64,000 nucleotides of DNA, taken from sequence record MZ502379.1. One strand, written 5' to 3'. A program made the translations under genes and the position numbers. This stretch comes from Escherichia phage vB_EcoM_Shinka. Below are positions 28,112 to 28,309 of this stretch, in pieces. The notes under the pieces were generated by a model. That model was given only the letters and a program-made list of their open reading frames with translations. It ran no database searches and had not been told where the DNA came from. The first letter of the stretch is position 1. Each line of letters begins with the position of its first letter.

Positions 28112-28309
28112 TTAGTAAATTGATTTACCAAAGTATTTGTACCAAGTCGGACGTTGAGCAATTTTTTCATCTAAGCGTGCTTGACTTATCGCAATGGACG
28201 CTTCGGACGGGACATAATTTCCTCCAAGTAGTTGATGAATGTATAGTATCAAAACCCTTGGAGGAAGTAAACAACTATTTTTCTGAAGCGCCTGAAATAT
28301 ATTTTTCAA
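28112..28309 (-). pseudogene. denV: denV (endonuclease V, pyrimidine-dimer glycosylase) 3' remnant
   Basis: Last ~35 codons ([34 protein letters not shown]) match the recalled T4 DenV C-terminus; N-terminal two thirds absent, frame opens at TTG after a stop, upstream space occupied by another gene. Confidence 0.55.

Follow-up and report, generated by a model that had tools for sequence, protein, structure and literature searches.

The DNA analyzed here, a 64-kb window (the whole stretch of 64,000 nucleotides) of Escherichia phage vB_EcoM_Shinka (MZ502379.1), includes the lysozyme/internal-protein region of a T4-like phage (Tequatrovirus), which is encoded on the minus strand. Along that strand, a nudE-like gene is followed by e, an internal-protein (IP)-like gene of 93 or 98 aa, the reported ORF, an 86-aa IP-like gene, and a 192-aa IPIII-like gene. 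The e lysozyme gene occupies positions 28553-29041 (minus strand; Pfam Phage_lysozyme). The IP-like gene upstream of the reported ORF (28275..28556, minus strand) is intact, encodes 93 aa from an ATG or 98 aa from a TTG at 28571, and matches PHROG 3499 (“internal head protein”) with an E-value of 1.4e-46. The stop codon of e and the start of this gene overlap as ATGA at window positions 28553-28556, an arrangement that suggests translational coupling of the lysozyme and internal-protein genes. On the other side, the 86-aa IP-like gene (27845..28105, minus strand; product beginning MKMYQEFIVEA; PHROG 2667, “internal head protein”, E 1.9e-19) starts 6 nt past the denV stop codon, and the 192-aa IPIII-like gene (27205-27783, minus strand) matches PHROG 5341.

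Elsewhere in the window, ten tRNA genes (Arg, Asn, Tyr, Met, Thr, Ser, Pro, Gly, Leu, and Gln) lie on the minus strand at positions 33851-34678. The record of phage Phaginator has no tRNA-Pro annotated between tRNA-Ser and tRNA-Gly, where a 651-nt “putative endonuclease” gene is located, and T2 has a CDS between tRNA-Met and tRNA-Ser with no tRNA-Thr annotated. These differences within the tRNA cluster resemble insertions of mobile endonucleases, which differ from one relative to another.

The reported ORF is present as it was listed mechanically, with 65 aa from a TTG start at 28112..28309 on the minus strand. The earlier note had matched the frame ending at 28112 to the C-terminal ~35 residues of DenV, and this identification is borne out by both sequence and profile searches. 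In tblastn, the intact DenV of phage G2133 aligned to window positions 28222-28115 over residues 102-137 (35/36 identical, E 6e-20), and T4 DenV (NC_000866) aligned with 33/42 identities (E 2e-18). PHROG 1183 (“endonuclease V N-glycosylase UV repair enzyme”) covers the ORF solely at profile positions 100-138/139 (E 1.2e-7). We therefore delimit a denV 3′ remnant at 28112..28219 (minus strand; tblastn, PHROG 1183, and DNA identity with G2133) that consists of 35 codons, N103 to Y137, plus a TAA stop (108 nt) and has no in-frame start of its own. The remnant DNA from 28219 to 28112 is base-for-base identical to the 3′ end of G2133 denV. The ORF's other ~30 codons (28220-28309) come from out-of-frame reading of the denV leader and of the end of the preceding gene. 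The frame does begin at a TTG, as the note stated, and this codon lies three codons past the in-frame TGA at 28321-28319 rather than directly after a stop.

A Pfam search of the 65-aa ORF found no family, because the Pyr_excise model (PF03013) spans DenV residues 1-87 only; on intact G2133 DenV this entire span falls inside the 310 bp that the window has lost. Catalysis by T4 endonuclease V requires the alpha-amino group of Thr2, which serves as the N-terminal nucleophile, together with Glu23. The codons for both residues are absent from the remnant: the codon after the retained ATG is TCC, out of frame, and codons 2-102 are gone. The note's statement that the catalytic N-terminus and Glu23 are missing thus stands, with the missing fraction revised from two thirds to about three quarters of the gene (310 of 414 nt). 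No full-length ORF of ~137-138 codons starts at the Shine-Dalgarno-associated ATG of this locus, which opens only 9 codons. A tblastn search of the 64-kb window in any frame recovered neither a full-length DenV with another frame or start nor a second DenV-like stretch, the remnant being the sole match.

We compared positions 27800-28600 with 50,697 phage records by megablast, and 260 records matched. In many of these, the two matching pieces lie ~310 bp further apart than in the window, and a full-length “endonuclease V” is annotated between the same two IP genes. In phage vB_EcoM_G2133 (MK327928), the two flanking pieces are 99.4% identical to the window and enclose an intact denV of 137 codons, whose product can be aligned over its full length with the T4 endonuclease V structures 2END and 1VAS (E 2e-80). 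Its neighbors are the same as in the window (e lysozyme, IP gene, denV, IP gene), a locus architecture found in about 174 GenBank records. A three-way alignment that included the window and G2133 contained a single gap of 310 columns, with no other rearrangement and no foreign sequence at the junction. The note's further proposal, that an IP-like gene had taken the space upstream of denV, is contradicted by these comparisons: the same upstream IP gene adjoins intact denV in G2133, 348Ecol098PP, Pu-Krd-SF4, and UFV13 and is its normal neighbor there, and the 86-aa IP gene occupies the same downstream position, with the same 6-nt spacing, in relatives with intact denV. The 86-aa IP gene is itself damaged in two phages with an intact denV: in G2133 it lacks 1 nt (window position 27950) and its CDS is shortened (L001:2312-2488), and in UFV13 it lacks 2 nt (27991-27992) and is split into two CDS (L018:2011-2263).

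The ends of the gap coincide in G2133 with a direct repeat, AATTATG[A/T]CCCGT, of 13 bp with 12/13 matches. Copy 1, AATTATGACCCGT, lies at L001:1882 and contains the denV ATG; copy 2, AATTATGTCCCGT, lies at L001:2192 and covers codons 103-106 (N103-Y104-V105-P106). The two copies are spaced exactly 310 bp apart. In the window, the deletion junction retains a single copy, AATTATGTCCCGT, at 28207..28219 (minus strand; alignment with G2133 and 12/13 scan), with a diagnostic T at 28212. We assessed the repeat with an explicit 12/13 direct-repeat scan of the 471-nt region and of shuffled sequences; a repeat search with a 7-nt seed did not pick it up. It is the only 12/13 direct repeat in the region. 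Because ~8% of shuffled sequences hold a repeat of this quality by chance, the repeat itself is unremarkable, and the informative point is solely that it matches the deletion ends exactly. This exact fit is the signature of a repeat-mediated deletion. Very probably, 310 bp were lost from an ancestral locus of the G2133 type (e lysozyme, IP gene, denV, IP gene) by slippage or recombination between the 13-bp direct repeats, with one copy left at the junction. T4 deletions commonly end in short direct repeats, as known from the classical rII deletion studies; those spontaneous deletions likewise end on a short imperfect direct repeat and keep one copy, but they are laboratory mutants, whereas the deletion in the window is a natural allele that circulates in wild phages.

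The leader of denV has survived the deletion. The Shine-Dalgarno sequence GGAGG is kept at 28221..28225 (minus strand) and is identical to that upstream of intact G2133 denV; the GGAG of T4 denV is RegB-resistant (PMC1702504). Further upstream, a promoter-like site, GTTTAC-18 nt-TACTAT, is kept at 28243..28272 (minus strand), with no difference from relatives whose denV is intact. A similar site, GTTTAC...TATAAT, fronts the next IP gene (27840-27812) and was flagged by a sigma-70 consensus scan. Because the same scan did not flag the denV site (8/12 matches), we treat it as a putative promoter, inferred from resemblance. The original denV ATG (28215-28213), which aligns with the G2133 denV ATG, now heads a 9-codon out-of-frame ORF, MSRPKRPLR* (28186..28215, minus strand; read from the sequence), since a loss of 310 nt, not divisible by three, shifts the frame. 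The DenV frame in the window contains no ATG, and its two candidate TTG codons, at 28309 within the upstream gene and at 28252 within the -10-like hexamer, both lack a Shine-Dalgarno sequence. Ribosomes that start at the retained ATG would read 9 out-of-frame codons and then stop, and transcription would presumably proceed unchanged into the downstream IP gene. The 35 C-terminal codons have no start and lack the whole catalytic domain, which precludes synthesis of a glycosylase. Taken together, the alignments and reading frames make it very probable that this stretch is a dead gene, a natural null allele of denV (T4 endonuclease V/pyrimidine-dimer DNA glycosylase) produced by a 310-bp repeat-mediated loss.

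The same deletion is present in other phages. A junction-spanning 42-mer identified carriers in 15 GenBank records representing 13 phages (G4498, G8, BF15, Phaginator, F27, 235Ecol030PP, JM10, JM17, FL18, FL12, FL23, FL44, and vB_Eco-B1.1), which were sampled in Germany, Poland, Denmark, and the USA from manure, pig feces, and sewage. One further carrier, the 168,755-bp JGI metagenome contig Ga0495776_001676, came from an exact-protein look-up; a junction-pattern scan of JGI metagenome contigs gave no match, and the same type of scan of IMG/VR returned one contig (169,650 bp) with the same A-type junction described below. The 13 carrier phages and contig Ga0495776_001676 share the deletion ends, the retained leader, and the neighboring genes with the window. 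For comparison, 1,119 phage records contain a DenV match, and at least 80% of the protein is covered in 1,094 of them. The closest overall relative of the window is Phaginator (96.6% over 25 kb), itself a carrier, and a DenV search of its complete genome (166.6 kb) returned the remnant only (E 5e-17), with all other matches at E > 4. The searches of the 64-kb window and of the Phaginator genome strongly suggest that the phage of the window would carry no intact denV elsewhere.

In the carriers, the stretch is left empty or annotated as “hypothetical protein” or “endonuclease”, and none flags a pseudogene. JM17, FL18, and vB_Eco-B1.1 (L010, L011, and L014 at 1485-1625; RAST-based) call the remnant a 46-aa “endonuclease”, a 141-nt CDS that begins at the TTG inside the -10-like hexamer; this call is probably an annotation artefact that could spread. 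The genes past the 86-aa IP gene vary among carriers (L002 and L005-L014, ~1900-3000), with the 192-aa IPIII-like gene or ORFs of 132 aa, 100 aa, 114 aa, and others. The e gene occurs as two very different haplotypes, among carriers and intact phages alike, which indicates that the locus is heavily mosaic. Given this variation in both the downstream genes and the e haplotypes, the deletion allele sits in a strongly mosaic cassette region. F27, JM10, JM17, FL18, and 348Ecol098PP are filed under Mosigvirus in the GenBank taxonomy, yet their locus is 98-99% identical to that of Tequatrovirus genomes, which points to mislabeling or mosaicism.

The distribution of the allele and its annotation bear on whether the retained codons might still work as a gene. 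A functional small gene with a TTG start, encoding a 46- or 65-residue protein that comprises the C-terminal helix of DenV, would fit the “endonuclease” CDS annotated in three carriers and the persistence of the remnant in 15 genomes. We nevertheless rejected this reading as highly unlikely: both TTG codons lack a Shine-Dalgarno sequence and lie within the -10-like hexamer or the upstream gene, the strong Shine-Dalgarno sequence and ATG feed another frame that stops after 9 codons, the entire Pfam catalytic domain is missing, and sister remnants contain a frameshifting 1-nt deletion and non-conservative substitutions. Moreover, RefSeq and other annotators call nothing here, and the 46-aa and 65-aa products have no exact match in a 153-billion-gene index.

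Two further readings concern how the gap arose. The mechanism implied by the earlier note, in which cassette shuffling displaced denV through an IP gene that was inserted or that replaced its 5′ part, is made attractive by the location of the remnant in a known hyperplastic internal-protein region, by the wide differences among carriers in the genes downstream of it, and by the different array, without denV, of T2. However, the upstream and downstream IP genes hold identical positions in phages with intact denV, and the window differs from them by a pure 310-bp gap whose junction contains no foreign sequence; the alignment with G2133 refutes such a displacement, which we regard as extremely improbable. 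An assembly or sequencing artefact in the window would account for the junction base T at 28212, which is unique among the 15 known junctions, but it has almost no chance of being correct given that the same 310-bp deletion is seen in 14 genomes assembled independently of one another (of German, Polish, Danish, and US origin or from the JGI metagenome); in addition, the 13-bp repeat is too short to collapse an assembly. Its occurrence in 15 GenBank records and one JGI contig indicates that the 310-bp deletion is a real, transmissible allele and not an assembly error.

Sequence differences among the remnants shed light on their fate after the deletion. Nine of the 12 GenBank carriers compared have a G-to-A change at 28185, and the G4498 group has in addition a C-to-A change at 28158; in the DenV frame, the changes at 28185 and 28158 would be S to N and A to D, respectively. 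This G4498 type is the largest carrier group (G4498, G8, BF15, Phaginator, 235Ecol030PP, B1.1, and the JGI contig). In JM10, FL12, and FL23, the remnant has lost one more nucleotide, at the position of 28168. Neither the extra 1-nt deletion nor the two non-conservative substitutions occur in any of the four intact alleles compared, and the remnant in the window is unchanged. These further changes in the sister remnants fit decay after inactivation, under relaxed constraint.

The variable base of the repeat is A in all 14 other carriers and T (28212), the base of copy 2, in the window. Since the locus is heavily mosaic, the T junction represents either a second deletion event or an A-type allele that was converted by an intact donor. 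Under independent recurrence, in which the crossover would fall within the repeat's left 7 nt, the difference at the variable base is explained directly, as is the identity of the window remnant with intact G2133 where the G4498 type differs at 28185 and 28158; the presence of the deletion on at least two very different e-gene haplotypes also fits. Descent from an A-type deletion allele later converted by an intact donor, on the other hand, is plausible for T-even phages, which recombine heavily and whose whole locus is mosaic here: a heteroduplex extending from the right flank into the repeat could turn A into T and import G2133-like bases without a new deletion, and in JM10, FL12, and FL23 an A at the junction already occurs together with the G2133-like state of positions 28185 and 28158. 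We place the chance of recurrence slightly below even. A broader proposal, that the G2133-type denV may hold a built-in deletion hot spot (the 13-bp repeat over its own start codon) and that phage populations of gut and sewage lose the gene repeatedly, each time independently, with the T junction of the window as a second, independent occurrence, is speculative and in our judgment rather improbable.

Comparison with T4 and T2 places the allele among the classical T-even phages. In T4, denV likewise lies downstream of e among internal-protein genes, in the order e-ipIII-ipII-denV, whereas the order in the window and in G2133 is e-IP-denV-IP-IPIII-like. The remnant is homologous to the last 35 codons of T4 denV, to which it is less similar (33/42 identical) than to the G2133 allele (35/36). 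T4 denV is intact, whereas the window lacks codons 2-102, a reading frame from the start codon, and the catalytic domain. The 13-bp repeat is absent from T4's own denV. In the complete T2 genome (AP018813, 163.8 kb), we found no DenV-like sequence (best tblastn E 4.3, no meaningful blastn match), and only one IP-like gene separates its e from the conserved downstream genes, compared with three IP genes plus the remnant in the window. This missing sequence and the different, shorter array at the locus indicate that T2 is denV-null by cassette-level absence. The earlier note had likened the window's phage to T2 relative to T4; the likeness extends to the expected phenotype, as both would lack a phage-encoded dimer glycosylase, but not to the lesion, which is an internal deletion in the window.

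Other lesions of denV came to light in the same comparisons. In G2540 (L030, MK327936.1; 701-1288), DenV residues 1-98 are fused in frame to ~97 unrelated residues in a 195-aa ORF annotated as “putative pyrimidine dimer DNA glycosylase”. With regB following immediately after this ORF, the 3′ end of denV and a number of genes downstream of it seem to have been lost. Shigella phage TB004 (L031, MW822011.1; 701-924) has a divergent, unannotated denV allele in which residues 1-41 and residues 99-137, encoded in different frames, meet at an overlapping AAATGGAAAAATGATT stretch; this lesion looks like another internal, microhomology-associated, frameshifting deletion.

UV sensitivity is about twofold higher in T4 v (denV) mutants and in T2 than in T4. 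Without DenV, the phage of the window would be unable to initiate base-excision repair when its DNA contains cyclobutane pyrimidine dimers. Its UV sensitivity in the dark would be expected to be ~2 times that of an isogenic denV+ phage, like that of T4 v- mutants and T2, and would be expected to be rescued by denV in trans, with normal growth in the absence of UV. Recombinational repair and host photoreactivation would stay untouched. We consider the predicted UV sensitivity of this phage a sound prediction, based on the classical behavior of T4 v mutants and T2, and it extends to at least 14 relatives.

Natural denV-less T-even phages and deletions at short direct repeats have long been known, and the same deletion is already present, unflagged, in public genomes; what is new here is the junction variant only. 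In the literature covered, which was incomplete, we found no account of natural denV deletions, of this allele, or of the molecular basis of T2 UV sensitivity. The practical value of the finding is modest, and it opens no new biology. It does correct an annotation, as the stretch is a denV pseudogene rather than an “endonuclease” or an empty gap, and the predicted UV sensitivity bears on UV-based handling, environmental persistence, and the formulation of therapeutic T4-like phages. Were the hot-spot proposal true, there would be a standing natural v+/v- polymorphism, a wild counterpart of the classical T4/T2 difference, which could be neutral in the dark or could even be favored, for instance where nicking by DenV, or the protein as such, carries a cost or is sensed by host defense. 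At the sequence level, the locus illustrates how T-even phages can come to differ naturally in UV resistance, through a 310-bp, apparently repeat-mediated deletion in the window and its relatives and through the complete absence of the gene in T2.
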